IMG/VR virus record: IMGVR_UViG_3300043443_000351
Coordinates: 107 to 64,106 of that record
Length of the DNA stretch: 64,000 nucleotides
DNA from: a virus
Lineage: Duplodnaviria; Caudoviricetes
Strand: one strand, 5' to 3'
Part shown: positions 36,701-63,319 of the stretch, one piece after another
Position numbering within the stretch: position 1 is the stretch's first letter
How the letters are laid out: each line of letters opens with the position of its first letter
The notes under the pieces: model-generated
The model's database searches: none
What the model saw: only the letters and a program-made list of their open reading frames with translations
Told to the model about the DNA's origin: nothing
Program-made: the position numbers and the translations under genes

Positions 36701-36892
36701 TTCTTAGTAATTGATGAAGGATTTGGTACATTGGATGCAAATAACTTATCATCTTTATTTATGATGATGCAGTATTTAAAAACTCAATTTGATTTCATTT
36801 GGATGATTTCTCACTTAGAACAAATGAGAGATATCGTAGATGGATTAATAGAAATAAAGAAAGTAGATGGGTTTAGTAAGATTGATTTTTAA
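33731..36892 (+). CDS. Fused Mre11/SbcD nuclease - Rad50/SbcC ATPase
   Basis: ADVH, AGDIAH, GNHD, FHG and GDIH phosphoesterase motifs; APNASGKSS Walker A; CKFC zinc hook; CSGME signature; VIDEG Walker B; ISH H-loop, all in one ORF. Confidence 0.92.
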   Translation: MKKLKTIYHIADVHIRNVQRHKEYRQVFEKMFEEIRKRGTENSIIYLAGDIAHAKLELSPELVREISWLFTECSKHCETILITGNHDCNMNNSDRLDVLTPIVEALNLPNFTYLRDTQVYSIGDVDFGVFSIFDDKSNWPKADTLSGNKKIALFHGPVDNSQTDVGYVVSSRHFTTDMFNGYDLALLGDIHKRQTMISPSGCKVVYAGSLVQQNFGESLNGHGFLVWDLDSFKYEAIDIPNEYGYYTLDVDNGVVPIVTDMPKKPRLRVRLSNTDTSDTKKVITEIKMRYGVEDFTIIRTDSFNKQKTGNRLSKLDFEDVSDTNYQNTLIRDYVQRMMPFTTTTDLDGLEVINRDINSRIVQEEIHRNINWKPIKFTFSNMFSYGEANKIDFTKVGGLMGLFAPNASGKSSLFDAISFCLFDKCSRAFKAQNILNNRKSDFECELHFQVDGIDFHIKRTARTINKGKNVKVDVQFWKEEGGVVTSLNGTERRDTNVVIEQYVGKYEDFVLTALSLQGNNSIFIDKSQSERKDLLAQFMGLNIFDKLYETATEDIKEVSVLIKNFKRTDFTSELAEKGLEKQTKKSELRGLEKTLESRTIDLNDLSDKILGLTKELTPIDGNLDLDSLTKQQNSIGRDILHILAEKKAKVENIEKSTIAISELSASIEENKKFYLSDDNYIDIEDANGSYIQAEKDYNVANNIYHVAKRTLEAAEEKIKHLDSHQYDPNCKFCCDNVFVKDAMKAKEDLEYLEVNVDEAMNDVSGFSNIMSMFADAKSQYDTMLDLQSKYGKALVLKEKSEAELEGLDTKEQLLEHQLESVKDNIQKYHDNEDTIKRNKQIESLIDGLNRTKGEIESEIKSINKDIAGLNGSISSLESFIEGIKSKMDEVKELEEKNRLYTYYLDAVKRDGIPYELISKAMPVIENEINNILAQVVDFSIVMDIDGKSINAKIVYEDQEWPLEMCSGMEKFVSGLAIRVALINICGLPRPNFLVIDEGFGTLDANNLSSLFMMMQYLKTQFDFIWMISHLEQMRDIVDGLIEIKKVDGFSKIDF

Positions 36893-37119: not shown

Positions 37120-37128
37120 ATATTTATA
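37120..37128 (+). promoter_or_regulatory. Putative late promoter motif ATATTTATA
   Basis: 17 nt before the tail fibre ATG; forms a divergent pair with 37091-37099. Confidence 0.6.
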
Positions 37129-37145: not shown

Positions 37146-40100
37146 ATGGCTGTAACAAAGAAAACCTTATTTGCTGAAAATTTAGATAGATACAATACAT
37201 TTGTACAAGATACAAATCCAAATAGTAGATATTTTAATATAACAGAACTACCCGATACATTTACAGGTGGTAAAAACGCATTTTTAATTGCCGGCTCAAA
37301 TGAATTAGTAGCTGATACTTTAATAAAAATAGAAATTAAAGATGCGGCTGGTGAAATCATATATCACGAGCCAGGTGAAGGATATTTGTTAACTAATATA
37401 AATGGTGAATCCTTTCCAGTAGAATATTATGAAGGTGTATCAAAGGTTGTAGCAGTTTACATTTATCCCGATACAACGGCATATGGTCCGTGTACAATTA
37501 CAATATTAGGAGAGTTAAGTAATTATTACGATGATAATGGATTATTAAGTCCTATACCATTAGAATGGCAAGGTACTTATAATGTAAAATGGCAAAAGAA
37601 AGTTAATGTAAATCCTACATTAGCAAACACTACAAAAGTTAGATTTTATAGAAGACCAGCCGTAAGTATTTCTGAAATAGTATCTCCAATATATAGAATT
37701 GATTCAAATAGTGGATTAAAAGTAAATACGGGAATAAACCAATCATTTGCAGATATTAAATTATCTCAAATGGATACATTCGCTGGAGATATTAAACGTA
37801 TAAAGGTATTCAGAACATCATTAGGAGATATTTCCGACTATGATATGATTCAGGATATTTTGGTTGAATCCAAAGAAGAATTAACTTCATATGATTTAAG
37901 TGGTAGTGTAGTCGGAAATGCCGGATTGTTCACATCTGAAGTATTGCAGAAATTATGGACAACCTCTCCAGGAATGTATGCAACATTGGATTCTACTAAA
38001 GTAGATAATGGTGTTATGTTAGTTGCCACTAACGATTCTGCTAAATTTACATATACATCTTCATTAAATTTATCCCAAAATAGCGTATATGAATTTGGAA
38101 TAGATGCAGTTTATGCATCCGCTGTTACAGCTTCTAATTTGAATATATTCATTAGTGGGTCTAATAATGGTGAAGTATTAATTGGTTCATTGGAAGGAAT
38201 CGTTCCTACTAAAAATTTAAAAGATAGTGTAATTCAATTTTCATTATCAAAATCAGAACCTACCGCTAGTTTATATTTGATGGGGAGTGGTTCATCCGAT
38301 AGAACATGGCATATTGGAAATTTATCTTTAAAATTATCACAAGATACTGCATTTTCACCGGATAGTGTTTCATTTATAACATCCATGCCAACTGTTGTTG
38401 GTGATGAAGATTTTAATTTTAAATTTGAATTTTACGATATAAATAATAATTACGTTCCGGTTGCAGTAACCGCAAGTGCTAATTTTACGGGAGGTTCAAA
38501 TACTATTACAAAGTTATTAACATTTGAATCAGATAGAACGGCATTTAGATTTTCATCGGGTTCAGTAGGTAATCCTCCAACTCAATTTGTAAGATTTAAA
38601 ACACAAAGAACAAACTTTACAGGTTCAATAACTTATTCAAGTGCATCATTTGATGTTAATGGTAATTATATATTACCAGCATCATATGCCGGAGAATATC
38701 CTGGAGCACTTTCAAATGTAAGTGATGCCGGTGCATTATTGAGTATAGCAAAATTTAGTGGAAGTGTTAGTAGTGTAGTGGTGGGTTCGATTGTTTATAC
38801 CGCATCGTGTGAAGGGGTTGAAGAATATGAGACTATTTATAGATTTGAAGATGGTGAAAATGCACCGGGTGTTTTTGTAACATCTAATACTAATCAATTT
38901 ATTTATAAAGCAACTGATTTATCATTAAACCCATCCGGTCAAACAATAACCATTGAAGCTAAACGTAAAAATTTAGCATCCGCAACAACACCATTAACTG
39001 TAAATTCGGGAAGTGGTAAACCACCATTAACATTTGTATCTACAAATGCAACAAATGGAGTAGATACTTATACGATAGCCGGTACGGCATATCCATACGG
39101 AACGGGAGAAACTACATATTTCATTTCGGGTTCAGACCAATTTGGAAATGAATTTTCAGATGCAATAAAGATAACTCCTGTAAAAATATTGGATGGATTA
39201 TCTGCAACTCTTACAAATGATAACGCATCATTGCCAGCACTTTCTAATGGATTTGTAGCAAGTGGTTCATTTTATTTTACTTCAGGCTCCGTTAATGTAA
39301 AAGTTGGAAATGAAACTATTACATTTGATGATGATAATGATAGTGCTAGAGCTAATAATACATTTGCAATTACCAATTTAAGTGGAACTGGTTGTACTCC
39401 AAATGGTGGTAATAATAGTAATCCATCCGAAAATGCATATAGTATAACTAATCTAACAGCAGATAGTGGTTCTTTGGATATCACAATTAATTATAAGGAT
39501 GGTGCCGGTGATACGACCGATATTGTAAAGATAGTAACTTATACAAAAAATAAAAAAGCAGCACCGGTATTAGCAATATCTTCTACAAATAAAGTACAAT
39601 CGGTTTCAGCAAAATCTACGGGTGTACAAATTGATGCGTTTTCAAATGTAACCATAAGTGTAAACGAAACTTATAATGGTGCAACTACTTCAAAAAGTTT
39701 ATCATCGTTAACCGCAACATCTTCGGATATTTCATCTATTGTAACCGATTATACAACGGGAGTTGTTACTTTGAATGGTAGAACTTTAGCAGATGGAACT
39801 AATTCAACTACCATAACTATAACGGCGGTAGTTACCGATTCCGAAGGTGTAAGTAGAACTGTAACCGATACATTGAGTTTATCAAAAGTTAAAAAAGCAC
39901 CACCTGCTATTACATTTGCAATAACCCCATCATCTCAAACAGTGGCTGCGGATAGTGCCGGAACATTAACAGGTACAATAGTAGACCCAGTCTTAACCGC
40001 ATTTGAAGGTTCATCTGCTTTAACATATAATCAAAGCACATTAACAACATCTCAATACAAAATTACAAATGTAACGGGTGTAACTGTAGCAAGTACTACT

Positions 40101-42419
40101 CCATCTACATCTACAATAGATGTTACGGGCATATCATCAACCGATAATACCGGCGTTGTTACTATTTCATATATTGATTCGGAGGGAACTTCGGGAACCT
40201 CTACAATTAAATTTGTAATATCAAAAGCAATAGCCGGCGCACAAGGAAACGATGGTACGGATGGTACAAACGGAACTGATGGAAACGATGGTGCACCTGG
40301 TGCAGACGGGCCTGGTGTTGTATTTAGAGGTCCGTGGAGCTCTTCTACAACTTATTACGATACGGGCGATTTTCCAACTCGTAGAGATGCGGTTTTATAT
40401 AATGGAACATATTACGCAACAAAAGTAAATGCAACTACAAACTTAAATAAACAACCGGATACTCAAACCGCATTTTGGGAATCTTTAGGAACTGATTCAT
40501 TTTTTGTAGCAGCAGAAATTGCCATATTTAGAGAATCATATGTTAAGCAAACTATAAATGTTGGTACAAATACATCGGGCAATGCAAATATTACTATTGC
40601 CGGTGGAACTACATCTCCATACATTTCAATTGGACAATCAACAAAAGGATATAACCAAACCGGTATATTTTTAGGAACTGATTCAACTGCACAAAAATTA
40701 TCATTAAAAGGTTCAAGTGGTTCATTGTTGTGGGATGGTGATACTCTTACAATCAATGGTAGTGGTACATTTAGTGGAGCATTGAGTGCGGCAACCGGAA
40801 CATTTAATGGTAGTGTTTCAATTGGTAGTGGTGATAGTATTTTTAAAGCAGATTCAAATGGAATCTATTTAGGTAATGCCACATTTGCTTCAGCGCCATT
40901 TAGAGTAACTCCTGCGGGTGTTTTAACCGCTACAAGTGGAACGATAGGTGGGTGGACATTGGGTAATACAACTTTGACAGGTGGTGCAGCAACATTAAAT
41001 AGCGGCGGCTCTATTTCGGTGGGTAGTGGTAATAATATTTTTAAAGCAGATTCGAATGGTATTTATGTTGGTAATGCGGCATTTGATGATGCTCCATTTA
41101 GAGTATCACAAGCGGGAGCAGTTATTGCTACAAATTTAACATTGACAGGTGGTAGTTTATCGCTAGGAAGTGGTGCAACATACGCAAACATAAATTCAAG
41201 TGGTAAATTAACTGCAGCTAATGTGGATGTGGCAGGTCGTATTACTGCTACCGAAGGATTTATTGGAGATTGGGTATTAACTGGCCCAAACTTATATGCA
41301 GCAGTAGGAACTAAAAAATTACAATTAGCAGCAGGAAGACCAGCTATGGAATTATATAATGGTTCTGCGATTGTAGTGGATATAAATACAAATACAACTC
41401 TTTCAGATAAATCGGCTGGAAGCGTTTCACCATCCCCATCATCAATTAGCTCATACAATACCCCCATAAATTATGAATTTTATGATAACAAATCTGGTCC
41501 AGTTTATTCATATACAAATAATACCGATTTATTAGGACCAAGCACATCTACATTCACAATAAGTTCAGGAAACGCTTTGATTGGTTCTACTTGTACAATT
41601 TCAGCAACAGTCTCTGGTACAGGTGGTACATTTGCTGCATCAGGCGATGATAGCCATATGAATAAAAATTTAATTTATATGGAATGGAATTTTTCATATG
41701 GATTTAAATTAGTAACACCATCGGGAACTGAATATGTAGTTCAGCCGGTCTCTTATGATGCTTTTCTAAATCAAGTAGGAACATATACGATGACTGAAAC
41801 CTATGGAACATTTACATTGAGTACATCTGTCGTATTAGAAGCAGGAACATATTATATAACGCCTGTATTAAACAATGTTTACGCAGCTGCAACATTACAA
41901 TCATCAAACTTACCAGGTCCCGCTGAATTTCAGTTGTATATGAGAACACCATTATTGGGTTCAATTAGTGCAGCAGTTCCGGTATCAAAAACCGAATTAT
42001 CAGCCGGCGGATTCCAAGTTGTTTACGATACTTCTAAATATTTGGAAGTAAAACGTGCTAATGAAACCGATTTCGTAAAAATTGGCGGTGGATTGACAGT
42101 TACCGGCGATGTTACTGCAAATACCTCATCCGATATTAGATTAAAAGATAATTTAATAAGAATTGAAAACCCTCTTGAAAAAATATCTTTAATAAATGGA
42201 TATACTTATGATTGGAAAGAAGGATATGAAGATATTCATACAAATAAAGGAAATGATATTGGAGTGATTGCACAGGAAATTGAAGTAGTACTACCACAAT
42301 TGGTAACTACGCGTGATAACGGATTCAAAGCAGTTAGATATGATAAAATCGTAGCACTTCTTATTGAAAGTATAAAAGAATTAAAAGAAGAAATAGAAGA
42401 ACTAAAAACGAATAAATAA
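37146..42419 (+). CDS. Long tail fibre-like protein with collagen-like segment and C-terminal Peptidase S74 chaperone
   Basis: Ser/Thr-rich beta-strand repeats, Gly-X-Y run, and SSDIRLKD...GVIAQEIE...YDKIVALLIESIKEL intramolecular chaperone. Confidence 0.85.
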   Translation: MAVTKKTLFAENLDRYNTFVQDTNPNSRYFNITELPDTFTGGKNAFLIAGSNELVADTLIKIEIKDAAGEIIYHEPGEGYLLTNINGESFPVEYYEGVSKVVAVYIYPDTTAYGPCTITILGELSNYYDDNGLLSPIPLEWQGTYNVKWQKKVNVNPTLANTTKVRFYRRPAVSISEIVSPIYRIDSNSGLKVNTGINQSFADIKLSQMDTFAGDIKRIKVFRTSLGDISDYDMIQDILVESKEELTSYDLSGSVVGNAGLFTSEVLQKLWTTSPGMYATLDSTKVDNGVMLVATNDSAKFTYTSSLNLSQNSVYEFGIDAVYASAVTASNLNIFISGSNNGEVLIGSLEGIVPTKNLKDSVIQFSLSKSEPTASLYLMGSGSSDRTWHIGNLSLKLSQDTAFSPDSVSFITSMPTVVGDEDFNFKFEFYDINNNYVPVAVTASANFTGGSNTITKLLTFESDRTAFRFSSGSVGNPPTQFVRFKTQRTNFTGSITYSSASFDVNGNYILPASYAGEYPGALSNVSDAGALLSIAKFSGSVSSVVVGSIVYTASCEGVEEYETIYRFEDGENAPGVFVTSNTNQFIYKATDLSLNPSGQTITIEAKRKNLASATTPLTVNSGSGKPPLTFVSTNATNGVDTYTIAGTAYPYGTGETTYFISGSDQFGNEFSDAIKITPVKILDGLSATLTNDNASLPALSNGFVASGSFYFTSGSVNVKVGNETITFDDDNDSARANNTFAITNLSGTGCTPNGGNNSNPSENAYSITNLTADSGSLDITINYKDGAGDTTDIVKIVTYTKNKKAAPVLAISSTNKVQSVSAKSTGVQIDAFSNVTISVNETYNGATTSKSLSSLTATSSDISSIVTDYTTGVVTLNGRTLADGTNSTTITITAVVTDSEGVSRTVTDTLSLSKVKKAPPAITFAITPSSQTVAADSAGTLTGTIVDPVLTAFEGSSALTYNQSTLTTSQYKITNVTGVTVASTTPSTSTIDVTGISSTDNTGVVTISYIDSEGTSGTSTIKFVISKAIAGAQGNDGTDGTNGTDGNDGAPGADGPGVVFRGPWSSSTTYYDTGDFPTRRDAVLYNGTYYATKVNATTNLNKQPDTQTAFWESLGTDSFFVAAEIAIFRESYVKQTINVGTNTSGNANITIAGGTTSPYISIGQSTKGYNQTGIFLGTDSTAQKLSLKGSSGSLLWDGDTLTINGSGTFSGALSAATGTFNGSVSIGSGDSIFKADSNGIYLGNATFASAPFRVTPAGVLTATSGTIGGWTLGNTTLTGGAATLNSGGSISVGSGNNIFKADSNGIYVGNAAFDDAPFRVSQAGAVIATNLTLTGGSLSLGSGATYANINSSGKLTAANVDVAGRITATEGFIGDWVLTGPNLYAAVGTKKLQLAAGRPAMELYNGSAIVVDINTNTTLSDKSAGSVSPSPSSISSYNTPINYEFYDNKSGPVYSYTNNTDLLGPSTSTFTISSGNALIGSTCTISATVSGTGGTFAASGDDSHMNKNLIYMEWNFSYGFKLVTPSGTEYVVQPVSYDAFLNQVGTYTMTETYGTFTLSTSVVLEAGTYYITPVLNNVYAAATLQSSNLPGPAEFQLYMRTPLLGSISAAVPVSKTELSAGGFQVVYDTSKYLEVKRANETDFVKIGGGLTVTGDVTANTSSDIRLKDNLIRIENPLEKISLINGYTYDWKEGYEDIHTNKGNDIGVIAQEIEVVLPQLVTTRDNGFKAVRYDKIVALLIESIKELKEEIEELKTNK
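40236..40316 (+). repeat. Collagen-like Gly-X-Y repeat
   Basis: GAQGNDGTDGTNGTDGNDGAPGADGPG. Confidence 0.9.
40809..41105 (+). repeat. Internal duplication of about 33 aa in the tail fibre
   Basis: GSVSIGSGDSIFKADSNGIYLGNATFASAPFRV (40809) versus GSISVGSGNNIFKADSNGIYVGNAAFDDAPFRV (41007). Confidence 0.9.
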
Positions 42420-43441
42420 TGCCATTACCATCTTCAGGTGCGATTACGATGTCGGCTATTAAAGCTGCGTTAAACACTTCTTCAAATTCGTTGAGGGAGT
42501 ATAACGTTATTGCTTTAGCCGCTACGGGTCTTAGTAAATTCAATACACCCGATGTAATGTCTGAATTTTATAATTATAGTGGCGCACCGACTCCGACAAC
42601 ACCAACGCCAACTCCCGTAGTTCCTACATATGTTCCATCTCCAACTCCAGATGTGCCTACTCCGAACTACACACCACCCACACCAACTCCTACGATACCG
42701 GAAACGGAAATATATATAACAATTGCTGCGGGTAGTGCACAGGAAGCGTGCGATGGTGGCGATTATGGAACTATATTAGTTACAATCTATGGAACTACAT
42801 TATGTGATGCTACAAAAATATTAGATTTACCATTTGCAGTAACAAATGATTTAGGTAACACCTCACCATTTTTCGCTTCACATACAGAAAATGGTTCAAG
42901 AGTTACTCGTAGATTTAGAAGAGATGGAGCCGGTACAATTAGTGCAAGCCCAACAGCCGCTTGCGTTGGATGTACGGTAACACCTACACCAACTGTTCCT
43001 ACACCAACTGTTCCTACGCCAACTGTTCCTACACCGGATGTAACTCCGGATTATGTGGCACCTACTCCAACTTACTATCCACCGAGTCCAACTCCCGATG
43101 TAACGCCGGATTATACTCCACCAACACCTGAATATGTAGCACCTACACCAACGCCGGTAGCTCCAACACCTACTCCAGCCGTAGCACCGGAATTAATATA
43201 TCTATCAGCCGCAGGTACTTCTGCTGATGCGTGTAGTGCGGCAAATGGATATGCTGGATATTATATTCCAAATGGAGAAAATTGGGCATTCGATGTATCT
43301 GCTATATACATGGATAGTAGTGGAACACCAGCTTATAGTGGGTGGTACACCGATGGAATTGCTAGTAAAGTTAGATTTTGGGATGGTTCATTTATAACAT
43401 CTGTTCAAGGTTGTTCAGGCGGCCCTATTGATGAAGTATAA
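42419..43441 (+). CDS. Pro/Thr-rich (extensin/mucin-like) putative virion protein
   Basis: MPLPSSGAITMS N-terminus typical of genes following S74 fibres; two PT-rich tracts (42587-42700, 42983-43189) alternate with two small Cys-containing domains. Confidence 0.75.
   Translation: MPLPSSGAITMSAIKAALNTSSNSLREYNVIALAATGLSKFNTPDVMSEFYNYSGAPTPTTPTPTPVVPTYVPSPTPDVPTPNYTPPTPTPTIPETEIYITIAAGSAQEACDGGDYGTILVTIYGTTLCDATKILDLPFAVTNDLGNTSPFFASHTENGSRVTRRFRRDGAGTISASPTAACVGCTVTPTPTVPTPTVPTPTVPTPDVTPDYVAPTPTYYPPSPTPDVTPDYTPPTPEYVAPTPTPVAPTPTPAVAPELIYLSAAGTSADACSAANGYAGYYIPNGENWAFDVSAIYMDSSGTPAYSGWYTDGIASKVRFWDGSFITSVQGCSGGPIDEV
42983..43036 (+). repeat. 15-nt tandem repeat encoding PTPTV x3
   Basis: cctacaccaactgtt x2, cctacgccaactgtt, cctacaccg. 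Confidence 0.9.
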
Positions 43442-43451
43442 TTAAAAATAT

Positions 43452-44909
43452 ATGAATAGATTAGTTACATTTGGAGATAGTTGGACTGCTGGACACGGAG
43501 TTGAAACCGATATACAATATAAAGAAATTATATCTCCAAATTTGTTTATCGATTATCTTAGATTGATGAATGGTTGGCCAAGATATTTATCAAATAGATA
43601 CGATGTACCATTTGTAAATTTAGCATTTTGTAATAAATCAAATAATGAAATTTACGAAGATATAGTTAAATGGAAATCTTTGCTAACAAAGGATGATTTA
43701 ATTATTGTTATGTTATCATATCCATATAGAAATTATGGTAACCCAATTAACGATGTTGGAAATATTATTAATGAATTAAATGGTTATAATTATTTTATTA
43801 TAAATTCCTTTTTTCCAACCTTTTCAAATTTAGAATATTCTGAATATTCTCATTTAAATCTTACACGGTTTATAAATATAGATGGATGTGTTAGTGATAC
43901 TTTAGTAAAATGGGAAGCCGAAAATAAACAAAGTTGTTGGGAATATGGATTTAGAAAAGTTGATAAAGAAAACACATTTTTAGGTGGAGATTATCATCCC
44001 AATACTATTGGCTACAAATTAATTGCCGATGATATTTACACTAAAATAAAAAATTATAATGCAAATAGAATAATAACTATACCAATTGCAGCACCTGTTG
44101 AATTATTTAGATTTCAAACTTCTTTATTTCAATTTTTTCAAATAAAACTTTATGGCGATAATGCTTTTAATAATTCAATAATTGTAGTAGTCGATAGAAA
44201 TAAACATAATACTACATTTGTGAGTATTCCTTGGAGTATTGATTTGAAATCAAAGCTATTACCAGGAATTCATAAAGAATTGGATATATCAAAAACTCAT
44301 TCTCATTATAATTCTATAAATGTATTTTATCCATTAAAATATATGATAGATAATATGTCCGATGATACAATTTTGTGTATAATAGATTGCGATGTAGTTC
44401 CATTAAAAATTTATGATGGAATATTACCAAATGATGATGAAGCAATTACTTGCGATGTATATGAAAACTGGCATATGCACATTAAAGACCCAACCAAAAA
44501 TAATTTTTATAAAATTGAGAAATATTTAGAACATACGGACTATTCATATATGGATGGTGGATTTGTGCCAATTATTATAAATGTAAAAACATTAAAAAAA
44601 ATACTGAAAGATATTATAGAAATTTCAGAAAAGCTTATAGATGGATTAGACCCAAATGATAAATTTGGATGGTGGGGCGCTATGGCTGGATTTCAAATTG
44701 CATGTCATAATCATAAAATAAAATGTATATCACAAAATAACACATATGTACCAAATATAAATGAATTAGATGAAGAACAACATTATTTTTGTCACTATTC
44801 GTGTGACCCATTATTTGCAAAAAAAGATTTTACAAATTGGGATGTATCTAAATTTAAATCAAATAAATTTTACAACAATGTTAAGACGTGGTTACGAACT
44901 TATCAATAA
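43452..44909 (+). CDS. Fusion: SGNH-like domain plus hydroxyproline O-arabinosyltransferase (HPAT/GT95)-like glycosyltransferase
   Basis: N-terminal half has FGDSWT...YHPNTIGY. C-terminal half has FQTSL, YNSIN, IIDCD (44385), VPIII, DKFGWWGAMAGFQIA (44664) and HYSCD (44793), in the order of plant HPAT motifs as recalled. Confidence 0.6.
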   Translation: MNRLVTFGDSWTAGHGVETDIQYKEIISPNLFIDYLRLMNGWPRYLSNRYDVPFVNLAFCNKSNNEIYEDIVKWKSLLTKDDLIIVMLSYPYRNYGNPINDVGNIINELNGYNYFIINSFFPTFSNLEYSEYSHLNLTRFINIDGCVSDTLVKWEAENKQSCWEYGFRKVDKENTFLGGDYHPNTIGYKLIADDIYTKIKNYNANRIITIPIAAPVELFRFQTSLFQFFQIKLYGDNAFNNSIIVVVDRNKHNTTFVSIPWSIDLKSKLLPGIHKELDISKTHSHYNSINVFYPLKYMIDNMSDDTILCIIDCDVVPLKIYDGILPNDDEAITCDVYENWHMHIKDPTKNNFYKIEKYLEHTDYSYMDGGFVPIIINVKTLKKILKDIIEISEKLIDGLDPNDKFGWWGAMAGFQIACHNHKIKCISQNNTYVPNINELDEEQHYFCHYSCDPLFAKKDFTNWDVSKFKSNKFYNNVKTWLRTYQ

Positions 44910-44920
44910 ATAAATGATAT

Positions 44921-44929
44921 ATATTTATA
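44921..44929 (+). promoter_or_regulatory. Putative late promoter motif ATATTTATA
   Basis: Intergenic, 16 nt before the P4H ATG at 44946. Confidence 0.6.
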
Positions 44930-44945
44930 CATATAATAAAATAAA

Positions 44946-45500
44946 ATGGTTACAATTATAGATAATGTATTGACACTAAATGAGTGTGAGCATTTAATAA
45001 AATTAGGTTCTAAAAACTTCGCACCAGCTGGAACATTGGGTAAGCAAATAGAGGGATATAGAACCGCAGATGGTAGTTGGTTAAGAGAACCCGATGAAAT
45101 CGTTGAAAAAGTAAAATCTATGGTTTCCATAATGACCGGAAACCCTATTGAAAACCAAGAAGAAGTTCATATTGTTAAATATGAAATAGGTGGAGAATTC
45201 AAAACTCATACCGATTACTTTCATCAAAATGAAGAATATTATTCGGAACATATTAAATTAGGTGGTCAGCGTATAATGACTTGCTTATTTTATCTGAATG
45301 ATAATTTTGAAGGAGGAGAAACCGAATTTCCATTAAAAAAATTAAAAATAACTCCACGAATTGGTAGATTACTATTATGGAGTAATGTTACGCCAGATGA
45401 TAATGTAGATTATGAAAGTTTACATGCGGGATTGCCTGTTATTAGTGGAACTAAATATATTGCAGTTGTGTGGATTAGAGAATCAAAATTTAAAAAATAA
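44946..45500 (+). CDS. Prolyl 4-hydroxylase (2OG-Fe(II), plant/algal/bacterial P4H-like)
   Basis: YRT, HTDYF (HxD), GGQRIMTCLFYL, GGETEFP and SLHAGLPVISGTKYIAVVWIRE motifs. Confidence 0.88.
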   Translation: MVTIIDNVLTLNECEHLIKLGSKNFAPAGTLGKQIEGYRTADGSWLREPDEIVEKVKSMVSIMTGNPIENQEEVHIVKYEIGGEFKTHTDYFHQNEEYYSEHIKLGGQRIMTCLFYLNDNFEGGETEFPLKKLKITPRIGRLLLWSNVTPDDNVDYESLHAGLPVISGTKYIAVVWIRESKFKK

Positions 45501-45505
45501 AATAT

Positions 45506-46027
45506 ATGCATTTTGATTTAGGAAAAATATTGAACGAATACGAATGTGAATACATAGTAAAAGAATTTTTTCATTTTAAAGATACCGGTAAAATAAATTT
45601 AGAAACCGATAATAAATTTTATAAAAATTCATATGGAGGAAATACTCCAATTACTTGGTATTTATTGGGTAGATTTTTACCATTAGTAGAAGACGTAGTA
45701 GGTGTAAAAGTAAAAACGGCAAACCCATATATCAGAATTTATACAAATGGTTCTACATTACCACCGCATAACGATAGACCTGAATTAGATTGGACTATAT
45801 CGGTTTGTATATTTTCAAATTTAGATAATGATTGGCCTTTATACGTTGAAGATACTACCAATGAGAATGGTAAAGTAGGATATCCCACAATACAAGGGTT
45901 CGCTGGATTAGTGGATGGTAAAATTACAAAACATTGGAGAGATGAACTTAAATGTAGTGATAAGCAATTTGCAATTCAACTATTTTTACATTATACCGAA
46001 TTAGATGATTGTGGGTGTGATAAATAA
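45506..46027 (+). CDS. 2OG-Fe(II) oxygenase (second type)
   Basis: RIYTNGSTLPPHNDRP, HWRDEL and QLFLHY motifs. Confidence 0.8.
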   Translation: MHFDLGKILNEYECEYIVKEFFHFKDTGKINLETDNKFYKNSYGGNTPITWYLLGRFLPLVEDVVGVKVKTANPYIRIYTNGSTLPPHNDRPELDWTISVCIFSNLDNDWPLYVEDTTNENGKVGYPTIQGFAGLVDGKITKHWRDELKCSDKQFAIQLFLHYTELDDCGCDK

Positions 46028-46032
46028 ATAAT

Positions 46033-47013
46033 ATGATAGTATTCATAACAACGGGTTACGGAAAAAATATAGTAGGGGGTTCTGATATATGGTGTAATAA
46101 CTTTATTGAGAATGTTTTACCATTGATTAAAGAAGATTACAAAATTGTAGTTGATGGTAGACCTTTATTACCAGAAAAAGATGCAATCTACACTTTTCAA
46201 AACGATGAAGAAATAGATAAGATATTAGATGAATGTGATAAGATAGTTTTTTTACACCATTCATATAAACCAAATCCTATAATCAAAAAGTATCTTCACA
46301 AAACTCATACGACATTTGTTCATGCATTTATTCCCGATATGTTAGGATTAAATGATGAATACGAAAATCTAATGACAAGATTAGATTGGCATTGGCAAAA
46401 AGATATTTTGGATAATTCTAAAAATATTGTATGGATAGGTTATGAAAAAGATACAATACACACATATTTTCCAAATACAATTACAATACCAAACTACTAT
46501 GAATGGAAGAATAATAGGCCATTTGAAGATGTAGCAAGTAATAAAATTGGATATGCGGCTAGATGTGAAACACGAAAGAATGCACATTATTTGGATGCAA
46601 TTCCTGCTTTTATATTCTCAAACAAATACGATTACAAAAGAATGTTAGAGGGTAGTAAGATAAATGATGATGTTCATACTTTTATAGAATTTGATTATCG
46701 GTTTCATCATAAATTCTTTGAAAAGAAATTTAAGATATTCCACGGATGCTATACAAAGGAGCCATTTGGATATGCAATATTTGATGCGATTGATAATGGT
46801 AAACTACCAATAATACATTCGGATTGGATGAGAGATATCAAATACCGATATAGAGCAATGAATAAAAAGCAATTTCATTATCAGTATTTAAGAATATTGG
46901 AAGATGGATTTGAAAAAAATAAAAAGCAATTCGATAGATTGAAAAAAGGATTGGAAAAATATACCGATAAAAATAAATGGGTTATTGAAATATGCAAAGT
47001 CTTATCAATTTAA
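46033..47013 (+). CDS. GT-B glycosyltransferase, GT4-like
   Basis: N-terminal GG motif (VGGSD) and EPFGYAIFDA...GKLPI. Confidence 0.7.
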   Translation: MIVFITTGYGKNIVGGSDIWCNNFIENVLPLIKEDYKIVVDGRPLLPEKDAIYTFQNDEEIDKILDECDKIVFLHHSYKPNPIIKKYLHKTHTTFVHAFIPDMLGLNDEYENLMTRLDWHWQKDILDNSKNIVWIGYEKDTIHTYFPNTITIPNYYEWKNNRPFEDVASNKIGYAARCETRKNAHYLDAIPAFIFSNKYDYKRMLEGSKINDDVHTFIEFDYRFHHKFFEKKFKIFHGCYTKEPFGYAIFDAIDNGKLPIIHSDWMRDIKYRYRAMNKKQFHYQYLRILEDGFEKNKKQFDRLKKGLEKYTDKNKWVIEICKVLSI

Positions 47014-47756
47014 ATTTAGTAAAAAATTTCATTACCAACAATCATACAAACGATGAAGAAGGTAATATAACATATCAGCCTGTAAAATATCGCTGGTCGC
47101 ATGGTGCAACCGATTTACATTTAGGCGATGGGTTACTGATATATTCTCTTATACAATTTATTAGAGCAAAAGTATGCGTTTGTATTGGAACGGGAGGTGG
47201 ATTCATTCCACGACTTATGACACAATCAAGACACGATTTATGGGAGCAAGGAATATTCGAAGGAAATCCATCAAATGAGTGGGGAGATATTGGAACTACA
47301 ATTGTAATTGATGCAGCAAATGGCGTTGGTGGATTTACCGATTGGACAAATGAAAATAGTTTTTTAAGAGAACATTTTGCACCACAAGTTATAATTGAAA
47401 CTTCTGAAAGAGCATATTATGATTATTTTGTAAGACAAGATATTAAGATAGATTATTTACATATTGATGGCGACCATTCATATGAAGGAGTTAAAAAAGA
47501 TTTTGAATTATATGCACAAATAATGTCAGAAAATGGAATTATAACAATCCACGACACAGACCAATCCTATCATAATACGTTTTTAGTTCCCGATACACAA
47601 AAAACTGATTTCGCAGAATTCGATGGACCTGCAAAATTTATTGAAGAATTAAAAAATAATCCTAAATATAATTTGGTAAATTTAAAAAATTTCCTTACCT
47701 TTACACATAAAACTACATCTACTGGTTTAGCAGTAGTTACTAAAAATAAAATATGA
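46992..47756 (+). CDS. Class I SAM methyltransferase (Methyltransf_24-like)
   Basis: CIGTGGG and IDYLHIDGDHSYEGVKKDF...GIITIHDT motifs. Confidence 0.85.
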   Translation: MQSLINLNLVKNFITNNHTNDEEGNITYQPVKYRWSHGATDLHLGDGLLIYSLIQFIRAKVCVCIGTGGGFIPRLMTQSRHDLWEQGIFEGNPSNEWGDIGTTIVIDAANGVGGFTDWTNENSFLREHFAPQVIIETSERAYYDYFVRQDIKIDYLHIDGDHSYEGVKKDFELYAQIMSENGIITIHDTDQSYHNTFLVPDTQKTDFAEFDGPAKFIEELKNNPKYNLVNLKNFLTFTHKTTSTGLAVVTKNKI

Positions 47757-48607
47757 TAAGATTAGTTACTGTAACAGGTGCAAGAACAACTACACTTCCA
47801 TACATGTTACAACACTATATTAACATAGTAGATGAAATCTATGTTGTAGCATACGATACTAAAAATAATCAATATGATAATGTAAAAAAAGTATGCGATT
47901 TATTTGGTAGTAAGATAAAATTATACAAACATTCGGATGAGCAAGAATACAATTGGGAAACAGTAACATCTATTTACAATGCTATAAAGGATTTACATCC
48001 TAACGATTGGTGGATAGTTTCCGATGATGATGAATTTCACTTATACTCAAAACCATTAACTGAAATTATAAATGATTGTGATGAAAATGGGTGGAATATA
48101 GTAAGAGGTGGGTTTGTGGATAGAATTGGTGAAGATGGTAAATTTAATGAAATAAAACCATTTGAATCAAACCAAAATTTATTCAGTCAATTTCCAATGG
48201 CTGGTTTTTTTAGATATCCAATGAGTAACGCTTGTCCAAATAAAATATGTGTGGTTAAGGGTAATGTAGAAATTACAAATGGACAACATTATGCAAAAAT
48301 TGGAACTAAAACATTATGGGGACCACAATTGGATAATGAAATAATAGCACCAATTGATGAATACAATGTTCAGGTTCATCATTTTAAATGGGATTCTACA
48401 TCAATAGATAGAATTAAAGCAGTTGCTGATATTAAAAAAGATTATGCATATTCGCATGAATATTTAAAGATGTATCAATCACTACGTTCAAATGGATTTC
48501 AATTGGATGTTGAAAATCCTTTATATAAATTCGAATTTTGTCCAACGGCAAATTATGAAAATTATAAAAATTGGAATGTTTTATTAAAAGAAATTATATC
48601 TATATAA
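47753..48607 (+). CDS. GT-A glycosyltransferase (GT2-like)
   Basis: LPYMLQHY, WWIVSDDDEF (DxD), K...G.H and VHHFKW motifs. Confidence 0.7.
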   Translation: MIRLVTVTGARTTTLPYMLQHYINIVDEIYVVAYDTKNNQYDNVKKVCDLFGSKIKLYKHSDEQEYNWETVTSIYNAIKDLHPNDWWIVSDDDEFHLYSKPLTEIINDCDENGWNIVRGGFVDRIGEDGKFNEIKPFESNQNLFSQFPMAGFFRYPMSNACPNKICVVKGNVEITNGQHYAKIGTKTLWGPQLDNEIIAPIDEYNVQVHHFKWDSTSIDRIKAVADIKKDYAYSHEYLKMYQSLRSNGFQLDVENPLYKFEFCPTANYENYKNWNVLLKEIISI

Positions 48608-48623
48608 AAGGTTATATTTGGTT

Positions 48624-50096
48624 ATGTCAAAAAAGAAGTTAGGTATTGTTGTACCGATACGAGATAAAAACGAAGAACTATTCAAATTTGCTGCACACAT
48701 GCAGTGGTTCTTAGCTGATAAGCTAGATTATACAATCTATTTTATAGAGCAACAATCTCCCGATTTATTTAATTATGGTAGTTTATGTAACGTTGGTTAC
48801 GAACTTCTAAAAGATGAATGTGATTATTTTATATTTCACGATGTAAATTTAATCCCAATAACCGATAATTGCGATTATACGGGCGATTTTTTGAGCCCTA
48901 TCCATATGTCCTGTAACATTTCGGATATCAAAAATGGTAAACCATATCCACAATATATTGGTGGTGTGTTTAAAATAACCAAAGAAGATTTTGAAAAAGT
49001 AAATGGATTCAGTAACGATTACTGGGGTGGAGGATTTGAATATATGGATTTATTATGGAGAATGGATAAGTATGGCGTTTTACTTCCTACTATAAAGTTC
49101 TTTGATAAAGATATTTACAAATATCATAGATTAGTAGATGTTAGTGAAAACGAATATGAAATCACAAAAAAATTAACATCATTTGAATTTAAAGATGGTG
49201 ATTCTTTAATGATTAAATCGAATTCTATTACGGATAATTTATTTCAAGATTCATTTACAATTTCGTTTGATGCATATATCAATGGTAATTTATCACAAGA
49301 TGGAACTATTATAGCTAAAGAAGGATATGATGTTGGGTTGTTTGTAAAAAATAACGAAGCATTAGTATTTCAACATTGGTTAGAAGATGGTGAATTAATT
49401 CAAATATGGTGGAATCATTCTGATATTAAAAACAAATGGGCACATATAACTTTAAGATTTGATGCAGCTGAAGGTATTGCATCTTTATTTGTAAATGGTA
49501 ATTTGGTAGATGAAGTATTTTTTGATACATCCAAACCATTGATGGATTTTTCAAATAAAGATATTTGGATGGGTTCTCTTTTCTTTAAAAATAAATTAAA
49601 TGGTAAAATATCAAATTTATTATGCTTTGATTATGCATTAACTGATACTGAAATTGATTTGGTATTTAAAGAGAATTACGATAAAGGTCTTACTACATTT
49701 GAACCCATAATCGATATATCATTTAATAAAATGGTAGGTCAATTTTATATCGATACCGCTAGTTTAAAAAATCACGCTAGACAAATTTTAATATCAAATC
49801 AAACTAAAATAGTAGAAGAAGATTTCCAATACTCTTATAAATTTAATATGCCAGAATCTGGTTTAGGTAAATTTAAAATTTTGGAAAATTCAGAAAAATT
49901 CACTATATTAGAGAATTATAACTATAAAAAGCCAGACCCGAATTTTGTAGAAAATCAAAATATATTCTTTTACGAATCAGTTAAAGCAAATCATAAAGAT
50001 ATTCCTAAATTTGGATTAGCATCGGTAAGTTATAAATTAACAGGCGAAACCAAAATAGATAAAAACATAAAAAGAATTTCAGTTAAATTAAACTAA
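48624..50096 (+). CDS. GT7 (beta-1,4-galactosyltransferase-like) protein with inserted LamG-like domain; degenerate active site
   Basis: IVVPIR, FNYGSLCNVG, FHDVN, YIGG and NGFSNDYWGGGFEYMD motifs. ATG 48624 preferred over TTG 48618. Confidence 0.75.
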   Translation: MSKKKLGIVVPIRDKNEELFKFAAHMQWFLADKLDYTIYFIEQQSPDLFNYGSLCNVGYELLKDECDYFIFHDVNLIPITDNCDYTGDFLSPIHMSCNISDIKNGKPYPQYIGGVFKITKEDFEKVNGFSNDYWGGGFEYMDLLWRMDKYGVLLPTIKFFDKDIYKYHRLVDVSENEYEITKKLTSFEFKDGDSLMIKSNSITDNLFQDSFTISFDAYINGNLSQDGTIIAKEGYDVGLFVKNNEALVFQHWLEDGELIQIWWNHSDIKNKWAHITLRFDAAEGIASLFVNGNLVDEVFFDTSKPLMDFSNKDIWMGSLFFKNKLNGKISNLLCFDYALTDTEIDLVFKENYDKGLTTFEPIIDISFNKMVGQFYIDTASLKNHARQILISNQTKIVEEDFQYSYKFNMPESGLGKFKILENSEKFTILENYNYKKPDPNFVENQNIFFYESVKANHKDIPKFGLASVSYKLTGETKIDKNIKRISVKLN

Positions 50097-50101
50097 CAAA
50101 T

Positions 50102-50386
50102 ATGGCAGGTACAAAAAAAGTTGTTACACAACAAGTAGAATCAGCAGAAGCTGTTGAAAATCTAATTTTAGAACAAAGAAAAGTTAAAGCATTAGAAAAG
50201 ATTGCAAATTCTTTAGATGCATTGACTGTTTGGTTCGAAGAAATTGAAAAGCAAGATTGGAGTGATAGAATTCAATATTATTTATATGAGTTCCACAACA
50301 ATGTTACAAGAATGGCAGATGCAGCTGAAGGAAATTCACCATCATCAACTCCAGCTGGTAGACCTAAAAAAGATTCTGAAAGATAA
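50102..50386 (+). CDS. Hypothetical protein
   Basis: Intact ORF, TAATG-coupled to the next gene. Confidence 0.6.
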   Translation: MAGTKKVVTQQVESAEAVENLILEQRKVKALEKIANSLDALTVWFEEIEKQDWSDRIQYYLYEFHNNVTRMADAAEGNSPSSTPAGRPKKDSER

Positions 50387-51846
50387 TGAAATTAGGAATA
50401 ATTGTTCCATATAGAAATCGAGAAGCTCATCTAAAAATGTTTAGAGAGAGTGTTGATGCTGCTTTAAAAAAGCAAGGTATTCCATACGAGTTGATTATTG
50501 TAGAACAATTGGATGAAAAGCCGTTTAATAGAGGTAAACTTTTAAATATTGGATTTGAAAGAGCTAAAAAGCTAGATTGTAAATATGTAGCGTTTCACGA
50601 TGTAGATATGATACCACTTAAAGTAGATTATTCATATTCAGAAACACCAATACATTTAGCAACAGGTTTTGAGGATAATCCAAATATAAAACGTATTGTA
50701 TTTGATGAATATTTTGGAGGAATAACAATGTTTCCTGTTCCAATTTTTGAACAAATCAATGGATACTCAAATGAATATTGGGGATGGGGATTTGAAGATG
50801 ATGACCTTCTTTATAGATGTAAGGAAGCAGGATTAACTTTAGATAAAAAAACCATAAAATCAGATAATAAGGTAAAAGGTTTATATTTTAATGGTAAAAA
50901 TTCTTACGTTGAAATTGACAAATTGCATGATATTTTTGATTTTAAAAACTCGAGAACCATACTTGCTAAATTTAAATCCGATGATATAGTTTGTAATCCA
51001 AATAAAGAATGGGATGATTATACTATATTTTCTATTCCAGGCTATGATACAAATATTAGTTTTAATTCATTTAAAAGATATAAAGTAGAAACTTGGGATA
51101 CCGATAACAATGTATATTCTATAAATTCACAAATAGCATCAAATACATATGTTAATATTATTTTCAATTTAGATTTTTTAAATGGAAAAATATCAATGTA
51201 TAAAGATGGTGATTTCATTGGAGAAACTACAATATCACGCACATATAATAGAGATGGAAAGGAAGTTAAACAATTTTGTAAAATTAAAGATTACAAAGAT
51301 GAAGCATCTTTCTTTTTAGGATGTGGTGACCCGTATAGAAATGAAGATGGTAATTGGTTTAAAGGTATAATCAAAGAATTTGCAGTATATGATGGATTAC
51401 TTTCTCAATCGGAAATTAAAGCAATATCTGAAAACAAAATGTATCCCCTTACTGAAAATTTTAAACAATATAAATCTTCAGAAAAATTATTATGTTATTA
51501 CGATACTTCTATAACAAGAAATAGAAATTTAATTGATTTGAGTGGTAATGGTAACGATGCATTAACACACCAAACGCATTTAGTGGAAATGGATATTTCA
51601 GATGAATTGGATGTGTATGTACCGAAAAGAAGAAAATCATTAATAAAACTTTTAACACATAGAGAAAACGGATATGATGGTGGAAAATGGAAAAATAGAA
51701 CTACACGTCAAAATCAAATAAGATTCTTTAATAATATTTCCAGAAATTTAACAAACATAGAATCGGATGGATTATCGACTTGCAAATATAAATTATTAAA
51801 TGAAGCAACCGTAAAAAACTATCATTTTTTATCTGTGTTATTATAA
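50386..51846 (+). CDS. GT7 glycosyltransferase with inserted LamG-like domain
   Basis: VPYRNR, FNRGKLLNIG, FHDVD, YFGG, WGWGFEDDD and C-terminal DGLS..KYKLL. Confidence 0.85.
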   Translation: MKLGIIVPYRNREAHLKMFRESVDAALKKQGIPYELIIVEQLDEKPFNRGKLLNIGFERAKKLDCKYVAFHDVDMIPLKVDYSYSETPIHLATGFEDNPNIKRIVFDEYFGGITMFPVPIFEQINGYSNEYWGWGFEDDDLLYRCKEAGLTLDKKTIKSDNKVKGLYFNGKNSYVEIDKLHDIFDFKNSRTILAKFKSDDIVCNPNKEWDDYTIFSIPGYDTNISFNSFKRYKVETWDTDNNVYSINSQIASNTYVNIIFNLDFLNGKISMYKDGDFIGETTISRTYNRDGKEVKQFCKIKDYKDEASFFLGCGDPYRNEDGNWFKGIIKEFAVYDGLLSQSEIKAISENKMYPLTENFKQYKSSEKLLCYYDTSITRNRNLIDLSGNGNDALTHQTHLVEMDISDELDVYVPKRRKSLIKLLTHRENGYDGGKWKNRTTRQNQIRFFNNISRNLTNIESDGLSTCKYKLLNEATVKNYHFLSVLL

Positions 51847-51847
51847 T

Positions 51848-53314
51848 ATGAAATTAGGAGTTTGCGTACCATATAGAAATAGAGAAGAGCATTTAAAAAG
51901 ATTCGTTCCTCATATTCATAAATTTTTGAATGATAGAGGAATTGAGCATGCTATATATTTGGGACATCAAAATGATGATGAATTATTCAATAGAGGATTG
52001 ATGAAAAATGTTGCAGCAATAGCAGCATTTGAAGATGGTTGTGATTATATAGTTTGGCATGATATTGATATGGTGCCAGAAGATGAAAGCTGTGATTATT
52101 CATTTCCAACCGATAATCCACAACATATAGCTGTTCGTATTTCACAATCCGATTATATGTTAAAGTATGAAGAATACTTTGGAGGAGCAGTTTTATTTTC
52201 AAAAGAACAAGCTGAAAAAACTAATGGTTACTCAAATGATTATTGGGATTGGGGAATGGAAGATGATGATTTGTTTTGGAGATGTGTGTTAGAAGGAATG
52301 GTTGATAAGAAGGTGCATCAAACAATAGAAAATCAATCATTTGGTAAATTTAATGGTGTTAATTCTTTATTAGAAATATTACCATCCAACAATTTAAGAA
52401 ATGCAATTTCCGATTCACATACAATATCAGTATTAGTTAAAGCTGACCAGCAAATAGAAAAAGTTCCTATTTGGTTAATCGGTGATACGCAAAGACAATT
52501 TGTAGAGTACCCAATTTTCAGAAAGCCGGGATACGATTATGGATTATCATTCAATAATAGTAGAGCATACACAGCTATGTTATGGGATTCACGAAAGAAT
52601 CACATTTATCAATGGATGAAACGATATGAAAATCAATGGAGTTGGGTAACGATGGTGTTGGATGCAAAAAATAAAAAGATGCATCTTTATATGAATGGAA
52701 ACGAAAGCGATGCTAGAAGTGGTACGGGTACCAATTCTCCATTGTATTTTGATTTTCCATTGAAACGTTATGGTGTAGAACCATTTTTTGTAGGACATAC
52801 ATCTTCGCCTGGAACACAAACGCATGCTAAATGGTTCAAAGGTGATATAGCTAAAATAAAAGTTTGGAATAAAGCATTTAATAATGATGAAGTTAAAAGT
52901 AGTATTTTTGAAAATGCTTTTGAAAAAACGGCAATATTAAACTTATCATTTAATGGTATGGCTAAAGATGATTCATATTTAAAACATAGATTAGTAAATC
53001 AGAATGTAGATATTGAATCTAACAATATAGAAATACCATCAACAATATTACCTTATAGAAGAGATGGTAAATTTGAATGTTTGCCACATCAAACCGAAGG
53101 TATTATAGAAGTGGGTGGTATTCAGAAATGGGCAAAAGGAGAAACTACTGCTGCAAACGAAAGAAGATATGTTCTTAATATGCAGCAAGGTGGTATCAAT
53201 TATAAAACGGATGGATTATCAAATGCAAAAGAACGATATGAATTTATCGGTAAAGAGCAAATAATGGATATTCCAAACGCATTTATGGTAAATGTAAAAA
53301 CCATAAGAAAATGA
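51848..53314 (+). CDS. GT7 glycosyltransferase with inserted LamG-like domain
   Basis: VPYRNR, FNRG, WHDID, YFGG, WDWGMEDDD and DGLS motifs. Confidence 0.85.
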   Translation: MKLGVCVPYRNREEHLKRFVPHIHKFLNDRGIEHAIYLGHQNDDELFNRGLMKNVAAIAAFEDGCDYIVWHDIDMVPEDESCDYSFPTDNPQHIAVRISQSDYMLKYEEYFGGAVLFSKEQAEKTNGYSNDYWDWGMEDDDLFWRCVLEGMVDKKVHQTIENQSFGKFNGVNSLLEILPSNNLRNAISDSHTISVLVKADQQIEKVPIWLIGDTQRQFVEYPIFRKPGYDYGLSFNNSRAYTAMLWDSRKNHIYQWMKRYENQWSWVTMVLDAKNKKMHLYMNGNESDARSGTGTNSPLYFDFPLKRYGVEPFFVGHTSSPGTQTHAKWFKGDIAKIKVWNKAFNNDEVKSSIFENAFEKTAILNLSFNGMAKDDSYLKHRLVNQNVDIESNNIEIPSTILPYRRDGKFECLPHQTEGIIEVGGIQKWAKGETTAANERRYVLNMQQGGINYKTDGLSNAKERYEFIGKEQIMDIPNAFMVNVKTIRK

Positions 53315-54967: not shown

Positions 54968-54972
54968 AAAAT

Positions 54973-56705: not shown

Positions 56706-56706
56706 T

Positions 56707-57872: not shown

Positions 57873-57873
57873 T

Positions 57874-61212: not shown

Positions 61213-61216
61213 AAAT

Positions 61217-63318: not shown

Positions 63319-63319
63319 T

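Follow-up and report, generated by a model that had tools for sequence, protein, structure and literature searches.

HPAT enzymes transfer L-arabinofuranose from UDP-L-arabinofuranose (UDP-L-Araf) to peptidyl 4-hydroxyproline. In plants, HPAT1–3 (CAZy family GT95) act after a prolyl 4-hydroxylase (P4H), and the plant members are Golgi proteins with a type II membrane anchor (PMC8012813). A second route to such glycans is the Skp1 pathway of Dictyostelium and Toxoplasma, in which a soluble cytoplasmic P4H (PhyA) acts and then Gnt1, of family GT60, and further glycosyltransferases (GTs) build a glycan on the hydroxyproline (PMC3515798). Viruses offer partial parallels: the PBCV-1 P4H acts on viral (PAPK)n-type repeats (Eriksson et al. 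1999, as cited in PMC7019647), with no hydroxyproline detected in PBCV-1 particles according to an unpublished note cited in the same article (PMC7019647); mimivirus encodes collagen lysyl hydroxylase/glycosyltransferases whose two activities are coupled on fibre collagen (PMC9546862); and mycobacteriophage GTs glycosylate the phages’ own virions (Freeman et al. 2023, as cited in PMC12582341). Here we describe a locus in a 64-kb stretch of DNA (the window) from an uncultured aquatic tailed phage with a G+C content of ~29%, in which a fibre gene is followed by genes for a Pro/Thr-rich protein (P0001), an SGNH-like domain fused to an HPAT-like GT (P0002), and a P4H (P0003). The identities of these parts, their family assignments, and their conserved three-way linkage are established here. 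Because the three parts recur in dozens of other phages, these phages probably give a fibre-linked protein a plant-like sugar coat; that a two-step, phage-encoded module glycosylates hydroxyproline in P0001, in the host cytoplasm late in infection, we hold to be about an even proposition.

The preliminary description of this DNA had reported three adjacent genes after a tail fibre, and we find all four in place:

37146..42419, plus strand: tail-fibre-like protein of 1757 aa, encoded at the head of the unit and carrying a self-cleaving chaperone domain at the C-terminus
42419..43441, plus strand: P0001, candidate substrate of 340 aa, from its translation and composition
43452..44909, plus strand: P0002, 485 aa, SGNH-like domain fused to a GT-A glycosyltransferase
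44946..45500, plus strand: P0003, prolyl 4-hydroxylase of 184 aa with H88-x-D90, H160, and K170, from PDB and Pfam matches

Judged by its homology, P0003 is a genuine collagen/plant-type P4H, as the earlier label of a canonical P4H had implied. All nine of its PDB matches (HMMER) are prolyl 4-hydroxylases. They include the Bacillus anthracis enzyme (3itq, E 1.6e-27; 3itq and 5iax cover aa 2–183), Chlamydomonas Cr-P4H-1 (2jig, E 3.1e-22), human C-P4H alpha-2 (7zsc, E 5e-21), and an entry deposited as a prolyl 4-hydroxylase that we take to be the PBCV-1 enzyme (5c5t, E 7e-12). No PHD-type PDB entry matched P0003 at E 0.01. The protein also matches the Pfam family 2OG-FeII_Oxy_3 (E 7e-16), and its iron triad (H88, D90, and H160) and 2-oxoglutarate-binding K170 align with those of 3itq/5iax.

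P0002 consists of two domains:

43452..44063, plus strand: SGNH/GDSL-like domain, aa 1–204, with GDSW at aa 8–11 and GGDYHPN at aa 178–184
44064..44909, plus strand: HPAT-like GT-A domain, aa 205–485 (281 aa), from PF23452, AlphaFold2, and Foldseek

The comparison with plant HPAT was drawn initially from short motifs, all of which are present in P0002 (FQTSL at 221, YNSIN at 286, IIDCD at 310, VPIII at 372, DKFGWWGAMAGFQIA at 403, and HYSCD at 448). Profile searches point the same way. P0002 matches the Pfam HPAT family PF23452 at E 2.8e-7 and 30.7 bits, above the curated cut-off of 23.9, and at E 8.4e-8 when the GT domain is searched alone; this remote match is the only one that the GT domain has in Pfam. 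Thirty of 40 members of the GT family match PF23452 (best E 9.8e-12), and other GT-A families in Pfam match none of the 40. The DxD motif of the GT is D312-C-D314; D312-x-D314 and H448 are invariant or nearly so, and E338, W340, G370, W407, W408, M411, H448, and Y449 are the residues invariant across the family. The AlphaFold2 model of the domain has a GT-A fold (pLDDT 96.5), and Foldseek searches of PDB and BFVD with it return GT6, GT8, and other nucleotide-sugar transferases as best matches, with TM scores of about 0.5–0.65, generic GT-A resemblances that speak neither for nor against GT95; a sequence search of the PDB with the GT profile gave nothing meaningful. P0002 begins directly with the SGNH domain and has no hydrophobic N-terminal segment, and stand-alone relatives of the GT begin at the first beta strand. 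Since it has no membrane anchor, P0002 is better viewed as a distant soluble relative than as an HPAT orthologue. On this sequence evidence, we assign its GT as a specific, distant, soluble relative of the plant HPAT family.

The N-terminal domain of P0002 matches Pfam Lipase_GDSL_2 at E 4.4e-5 with 21–24.5 bits, under the cut-off of 32.9; it has GDSW, comparable to the GDS of block I, and D-Y-H at aa 180–182, where block V of the family would read DxxH. This domain forms a gene of its own in two related loci, L074 and L081 (phmmer E 3e-67 and 3.5e-72), and it also exists as stand-alone proteins of 200–220 aa.

The candidate substrate alternates short folded modules with tracts of XP dipeptides:

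42419-42577, plus strand: P0001 conserved N-terminal module, aa 1–53, from the family alignment
42578-42700, plus strand: P0001 XP tract 1, aa 54–94
P0001 aa 95–185, plus strand: small beta domain
42974-43189, plus strand: P0001 XP tract 2, aa 186–257
P0001 aa 258–340, plus strand: C-terminal Cys-containing domain

P0001 contains 51 Pro (15%) and 53 Thr (15.6%), against 3.8% and 6.6% for the rest of the window, and it is the only strongly Pro-rich open reading frame there. The TP, SP, AP, and VP tracts reported in the preliminary description are real: the two tracts hold 41 [TSAV]P dipeptides, in which most of the Thr residues lie as TP, and the motif TYYPPSP occupies aa 218–224. The term ‘extensin-like’ is inaccurate, because the protein has no Ser-Pro3-5 blocks; it has only 3 PP dipeptides and one PPSP, and it is better called a TP/VP/AP/SP linker, a PT-linker, or an arabinogalactan-protein-like (AGP-like) tract. 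An alignment of its family (A3, eight members) shows the highly conserved 53-aa N-terminal module and invariant P and T columns, with tracts that vary in length and small Cys-containing domains that are kept. In the AlphaFold2 model there are two small folded beta domains, and the tracts are disordered. PHROGs holds no family for P0001 or P0002.

Several features tie P0001 to the fibre. The protein encoded upstream is fibre-like because it carries a Peptidase_S74 chaperone at its C-terminus (aa 1662–1720, Pfam E 4e-14). The ATG of P0001 overlaps the fibre stop codon (TAATG), an arrangement for translational coupling, and the fibre gene is kept upstream of the module in the related loci L003, L004, L006, and L074. 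Together with the conserved N-terminal module, this coupling and synteny suggest that P0001 is probably fibre-associated.

To what extent the three parts travel together was assessed in three sets of loci: the window’s own clade (GT identity 72–82%), 45 distant IMG/VR loci with GT relatives at 28–38% identity (19 lineages at 70% identity), and 80 metagenome loci at 35–82% identity from marine TARA and other samples (20 lineages). The genome and metagenome sets were gathered with an alignment, A1, that biases them toward closer relatives. In the own clade, the fibre, Pro-rich protein, SGNH-GT, P4H, and two unknown genes stand in identical order on contigs from four other samples, one of them 287 kb long. 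Next in L003, L004, and L005 come the methyltransferase, GT2-like, and GT7+LamG genes, ordered as in the window; L006 stops after the two unknown genes.

The linkage extends well beyond this clade. A 2-oxoglutarate (2OG) hydroxylase flanks the GT, or is fused to it, in 8 of the 19 distant IMG/VR lineages, where 0.69 would be expected from the rate of such hydroxylases among the non-flanking genes of the same loci (5/273; binomial P 1.6e-7). The architectures in these eight lineages comprise a 184-aa P4H downstream, a ~380-aa double oxygenase overlapping the GT start, a divergently transcribed 187-aa P4H, a 720-aa fusion of GT and 2OG-FeII_Oxy_3 in one chain (L023), and a JmjC/Cupin_8 hydroxylase overlapping the GT start. 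Mapped on a maximum-likelihood tree of GT domains, adjacency to a P4H requires no fewer than five changes, of which at least three are forced by well-supported branches. Among the metagenomic lineages, 15 of 20 have a P4H no more than 1.8 kb from the GT; four of the other five are on short or truncated contigs, and one is truly without P4H.

Gene order and gene structure both vary across these loci. In L074, the order is permuted to fibre (S74), P0001 homologue (N-terminal module E 2e-18), P4H, separate SGNH gene, and GT; in marine loci, a large Pro-rich protein is followed by P4H, a 228-aa gene, the GT, and a Pro-rich protein with a crAss muzzle (tail) domain. Single-chain fusions are of three kinds, GT with a P4H-type domain, GT with JmjC, and GT60 with GT. 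The GT+Cupin_8/JmjC fusions occur in the proteins P0048 and P0176 and in the bacterial loci L060–L065, so that the same GT has linked hydroxylases from two families (P4H-type and JmjC-type) that are unrelated to each other. The third kind is found in some relatives, in which the Pfam ‘GlcNAc’ domain PF11397, presumably the family of the Skp1-hydroxyproline GlcNAc transferase Gnt1 (GT60), is joined to a window-type GT. The preliminary description had looked to co-occurrence and synteny of the three genes across related phages, and the outcome is strongly positive. The variety of arrangements favours selection over inheritance alone.

Searches of GenBank phages with the region and with P0002 (blastn and tblastn) gave no match, and the module is therefore absent from the cultured phages in that collection. 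The genome of Microcystis phage Mel-JY01 encodes a P4H at 40% identity but no such GT, and the gene next to its P4H is not Pro-rich.

The hydroxylase is in turn associated with a potential substrate. Defining an XP-tract protein as one with at least 11 Pro in 30 aa, encoded no more than 3.5 kb from the GT, we find one in 14 of 22 hydroxylase-linked lineages versus 0 of 12 unlinked ones (34 lineage representatives; Fisher P 2.3e-4, with lineages that share ancestry). In L030, a (PTPS)n protein unrelated to P0001, a P4H, and the GT are all adjacent; the C-terminal domain of this Pro-rich protein and that of P0001 match at a BLASTP E of 0.012 over only 30 aa. The Pro-rich neighbours of the GT in the marine loci carry the crAss muzzle (tail) domain.

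These observations are consistent with the following scheme. The fibre, P0001, and SGNH-GT genes would be made as one unit. P0003, with O2, Fe(II), and 2-oxoglutarate, would then convert Pro in the TP/VP/AP/SP tracts of P0001 to 4-hydroxyproline, and the soluble HPAT-like GT-A domain of P0002 would place a first sugar, taken from a nucleotide sugar, on these hydroxyprolines. Later, the SGNH domain and the downstream methyltransferase, GT2-like, and three GT7+LamG genes (together at 45506..53314) would probably trim the glycan or lengthen it; still further downstream, the window encodes nucleotide-sugar enzymes. The predicted product is a glycosylated linker protein, rich in hydroxyproline, that would be produced together with the fibre and probably rides on it. 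The substrate, the acceptor residue, the sugar, and the presence of P0001 in the virion are predictions from sequence in this scheme. As the enzymes have no signal or anchor sequences, the pathway would be cytoplasmic, and in that setting it would stand closer to the Skp1 pathway (PMC3515798) than to the plant Golgi pathway (PMC8012813). With respect to the interpretation offered in the preliminary description, the HPAT-family relative, the genuine P4H, and the three-part synteny stand; the substrate is not extensin-like, and Pfam searches detected no GT4-like or GT10-like extension gene.

Comparison with the described systems shows both shared logic and clear departures. With the plant and green-algal pathway for hydroxyproline-rich glycoproteins, the locus shares both enzyme families and the logical order of their action; P0003 is near Chlamydomonas Cr-P4H-1, and the non-contiguous XP dipeptide tracts of P0001 resemble those that plant P4Hs hydroxylate. 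Unlike that pathway, the phage enzymes are soluble, with no type II anchor, and would act in the bacterial cytoplasm, the GT is fused to an SGNH domain, the Ser-Pro3-5 blocks are missing, the HPAT similarity is remote, and the window has no RRA/XEG113/ExAD-type arabinosyltransferases. With the Skp1 pathway the locus shares a soluble, cytoplasmic pairing of P4H and GTs, and relatives of the window GT are fused to a PF11397 domain. However, Skp1 is modified at a single Pro of one regulatory protein and not in repeat tracts, Pfam finds no PF11397/GT60 domain in the window, and PhyA is a HIF-PHD-type enzyme whereas P0003 is of the collagen/plant type. PBCV-1 and mimivirus likewise provide a virus-encoded 2OG hydroxylase for the virus’s own repeat proteins, but their hosts are eukaryotic, PBCV-1 has no known hydroxyproline glycosylation, and mimivirus targets Lys with different GT families. 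Mycobacteriophages resemble the proposed system in that phage-encoded GTs decorate the phage’s structural proteins inside the host; there, reportedly, other GT families are at work, the sugars are attached to Ser/Thr-rich extensions at the C-termini of capsid and tail-tube proteins, and hydroxylation plays no part.

Several observations weigh against hydroxyproline-linked glycosylation of P0001. One relative of the GT95 family, GT96, is a Ser-galactosyltransferase (PMC8012813), and in P0001 Thr is just as abundant as Pro. The GT is present and a PF13640 gene absent in the 48-kb phage contig L011, which is 99% complete, and lineages with (TP)n or collagen-like (GPT)n fibres next to the GT (L001, L017, and L039) have no P4H nearby; in view of these cases, the family does not always depend on hydroxyproline. 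The HPAT match itself is weak (about 31 bits) and partial, covering profile positions 134–264 of 307 in the window protein and 14–250 in relatives. The PDB copy searched contains no HPAT or SGT1 structure, and phmmer over 1.84 billion representatives together with a profile search recovered the phage/bacterial family only, with no plant HPAT or SGT1. Finally, the lineages are related to each other, and the P values for linkage therefore overstate independence. Kinship with GT96, the Thr content of P0001, L011, and the P4H-free (TP)n/(GPT)n lineages together keep Thr in play: both enzymes could act on the same tracts with the sugar on Thr or Ser (as by plant SGT1/GT96, or in mucin-type or Bacillus BclA-type glycosylation) and with hydroxyproline as a polyproline-II stiffener or recognition element. 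We consider this reading unlikely, although a serious competitor to the evenly weighted acceptance of hydroxyproline as the glycosylated residue. HPAT is the only named family that matches the GT, many lineages have the GT either in one chain with a hydroxylase or encoded by a gene that overlaps a hydroxylase gene, and Pro-rich tracts occur near the GT only together with a hydroxylase, a pattern that suits a hydroxyproline acceptor at least as well as a hydroxyproline recognition element.

It is also conceivable, if rather improbable, that the enzymes and the sugar cluster remodel host envelope glycans or lipopolysaccharide (as proposed for cyanophage lipopolysaccharide-type clusters) or host proteins such as EF-Tu, with P0001 being a fibre accessory that has flexible PT linkers. 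The long nucleotide-sugar and GT island of the window would fit such a role, as would the P4H-type genes that are common in cyanophages without this GT (310 phage records), those GT lineages that lack a nearby Pro-rich protein and are surrounded by GH130-like or O-FucT-like glycan genes, and the bacterial chromosomal copies in ordinary metabolic neighbourhoods. But a host target explains neither the three-way association with Pro-rich tract proteins nor why, in many lineages, fibre and muzzle proteins are encoded next door, and the two named families that come nearest, HPAT and GT60, act on proteins and not on polysaccharides. Alternatively, the genes might have no functional link at all, their order being due to descent in one phage group, the PT tracts being unmodified spacers, and the HPAT match being generic GT-A resemblance. 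The majority of loci do belong to aquatic myovirus-like contigs that are related to one another, the Pfam score is modest, and fold searches give generic GT-A families only (GT6 and GT8). Given that the lineages show permuted gene orders and different strand arrangements, that fusions have arisen in three kinds, that unrelated P4H-type and JmjC-type hydroxylases are tied to the same GT, and that no other GT-A family in Pfam matches any of the 40 members, we judge this last explanation highly improbable. For hydroxyproline O-glycosylation as a broader phenomenon, we put forward tentatively, at slightly less than even confidence, that a pathway homologous to the P4H/HPAT system of plants is common among aquatic tailed phages and also occurs in some bacteria, and that it converts Pro-rich linkers in fibre and tail proteins to hydroxyproline-rich glycoproteins.

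Further features of the related loci are recorded here. The P4H partners of many lineages are two-domain proteins, for example L019 8841-10001 (P0195) and L030 7693-9021 (P0197), with an extra 2OG-oxygenase-like domain, N- or C-terminal to the P4H domain, that has its own HxD-like motif; the linker in L030, KKPT/KKPTAKK, is reminiscent of the (PAPK)n peptides that serve the PBCV-1 P4H as substrates. Some marine and other metagenomic loci carry two tandem HPAT-like GT paralogs next to each other (L072 8132-9765 and L081 8590-10211). The bacterial fusions of L060–L065, from metagenome-assembled genomes (MAGs) of Pseudohongiellaceae and other Gammaproteobacteria on contigs of up to 1.28 Mb, are chromosomal GT+Cupin_8/JmjC proteins of 649–679 aa encoded amid ordinary metabolic genes; L064 differs in having the two parts as separate, neighbouring genes. 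In Pyrinomonadaceae MAGs (L057 4939-8876, L059 5014-8858, and L058), the GT is in an operon with a 232–242-aa (PPAPGRK)n-type repeat protein and two large proteins without a Pfam match, with no P4H-type gene within 8 kb. Collagen-like (GPT)n and (GFT)n fibre proteins adjoin the GT in L039 (3818-8211), L041, L042, and L050 with no hydroxylase nearby, and the GPT repeat recalls the O-glycosylated collagen-like region of Bacillus BclA; Pro-rich open reading frames in L039 and L041 were rejected as wrong-strand readings of these (GPT)n fibre genes. In some P4H-free lineages, GH130-like (beta-mannoside phosphorylase-like) genes directly precede the GT (L015 728-2857, L027 8893-9996, and L028 8857-9999).

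Transcription signals were sought between 36.8 and 54 kb. A sigma-70 scan found fewer promoter-like sites than in shuffled sequence, and the 9 terminator-like sites found, versus 6.9 expected, are inside the shuffled range; there is thus no sign of a break inside the unit. One short motif recurs next to genes:

44921..44929, plus strand: ATATTTATA motif, possible phage promoter, 17 nt upstream of the P4H start codon

The same motif is present at 37120, 17 nt before the fibre gene, and it also lies in short gaps at 23651, 28921, 30871, and 32101 on the plus strand; at five of these six sites it is 14–29 nt before a start codon, and at 32101 it is just past the stop of the preceding gene. Its overall count is at chance level (10 versus 9.4 expected, no enrichment). 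Despite this, ATATTTATA may be a phage promoter, because six of its seven plus-strand copies are intergenic, in short gaps before genes.

All large genes of the window are on a single strand, and downstream of the P4H they continue as follows:

45506..53314, plus strand: co-directional downstream genes, by Pfam two unknowns (173 and 326 aa), Methyltransf_24, a GT2-like gene, and three GT7+LamG paralogs

The GT2- and GT7-like genes of the preliminary description are found here; Pfam searches of the window detected no GT4-like or GT10-like extension gene in the downstream region. The three tandem paralogs (48618-53314; 486–492 aa) each join the N- and C-terminal domains of GT7 to a Laminin_G_3/ConA-like lectin domain and are kept at the same place in L003, L004, and L005. 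Beyond them lies a sugar-nucleotide island (53543-63862) with two radical SAM genes, three NAD-dependent epimerase/dehydratases, an RmlC-like 3,5-epimerase, and short thiamine pyrophosphate (TPP) proteins that are E1-alpha-like (57243) and transketolase-pyrimidine-like (63320); this gene content suggests synthesis of an unusual, possibly branched, sugar. Elsewhere, the window encodes a baseplate wedge, a primase, and fused SbcCD-type genes, by which the closest cultured relative is Microcystis phage Mel-JY01 (41% identity). The SbcCD-type gene (33731-36892) encodes a 1053-aa fusion of SbcD-like (Mre11) and SbcC-like (Rad50) parts, which recurs in Mel-JY01 and in a 484-kb uncultured phage. A second 2OG-FeII_Oxy_3 oxygenase (182-751, 189 aa, E 8e-8) has no PDB match, no P4H match, and no similarity to P0003 at E 1e-3, and is therefore not recognizable as a P4H.

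To our knowledge, hydroxyproline-linked glycans come only from eukaryotes, namely plants, algae, and Skp1 in protists, and a full-text literature search returned no paper linking HPAT/GT95 or hydroxyproline glycosylation with phages. If the proposed pathway is real, it would be, as far as we know, the first hydroxyproline-linked protein glycosylation outside eukaryotes. Phage P4H-type oxygenases are common, with 310 GenBank phage records, and we know of no substrate assigned to them; the pathway would give phage prolyl hydroxylases a function. It would reopen the origin of GT95/GT96 as an evolutionary question and, if confirmed, would make available for structural studies a set of soluble relatives of the membrane-bound plant enzymes that bacteria can express. 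Because the module is self-contained, with three to four genes and a candidate substrate of its own, the system is directly testable in Escherichia coli. For aquatic phages, it would represent a new kind of virion decoration, relevant to adsorption, protease resistance, and particle stability.

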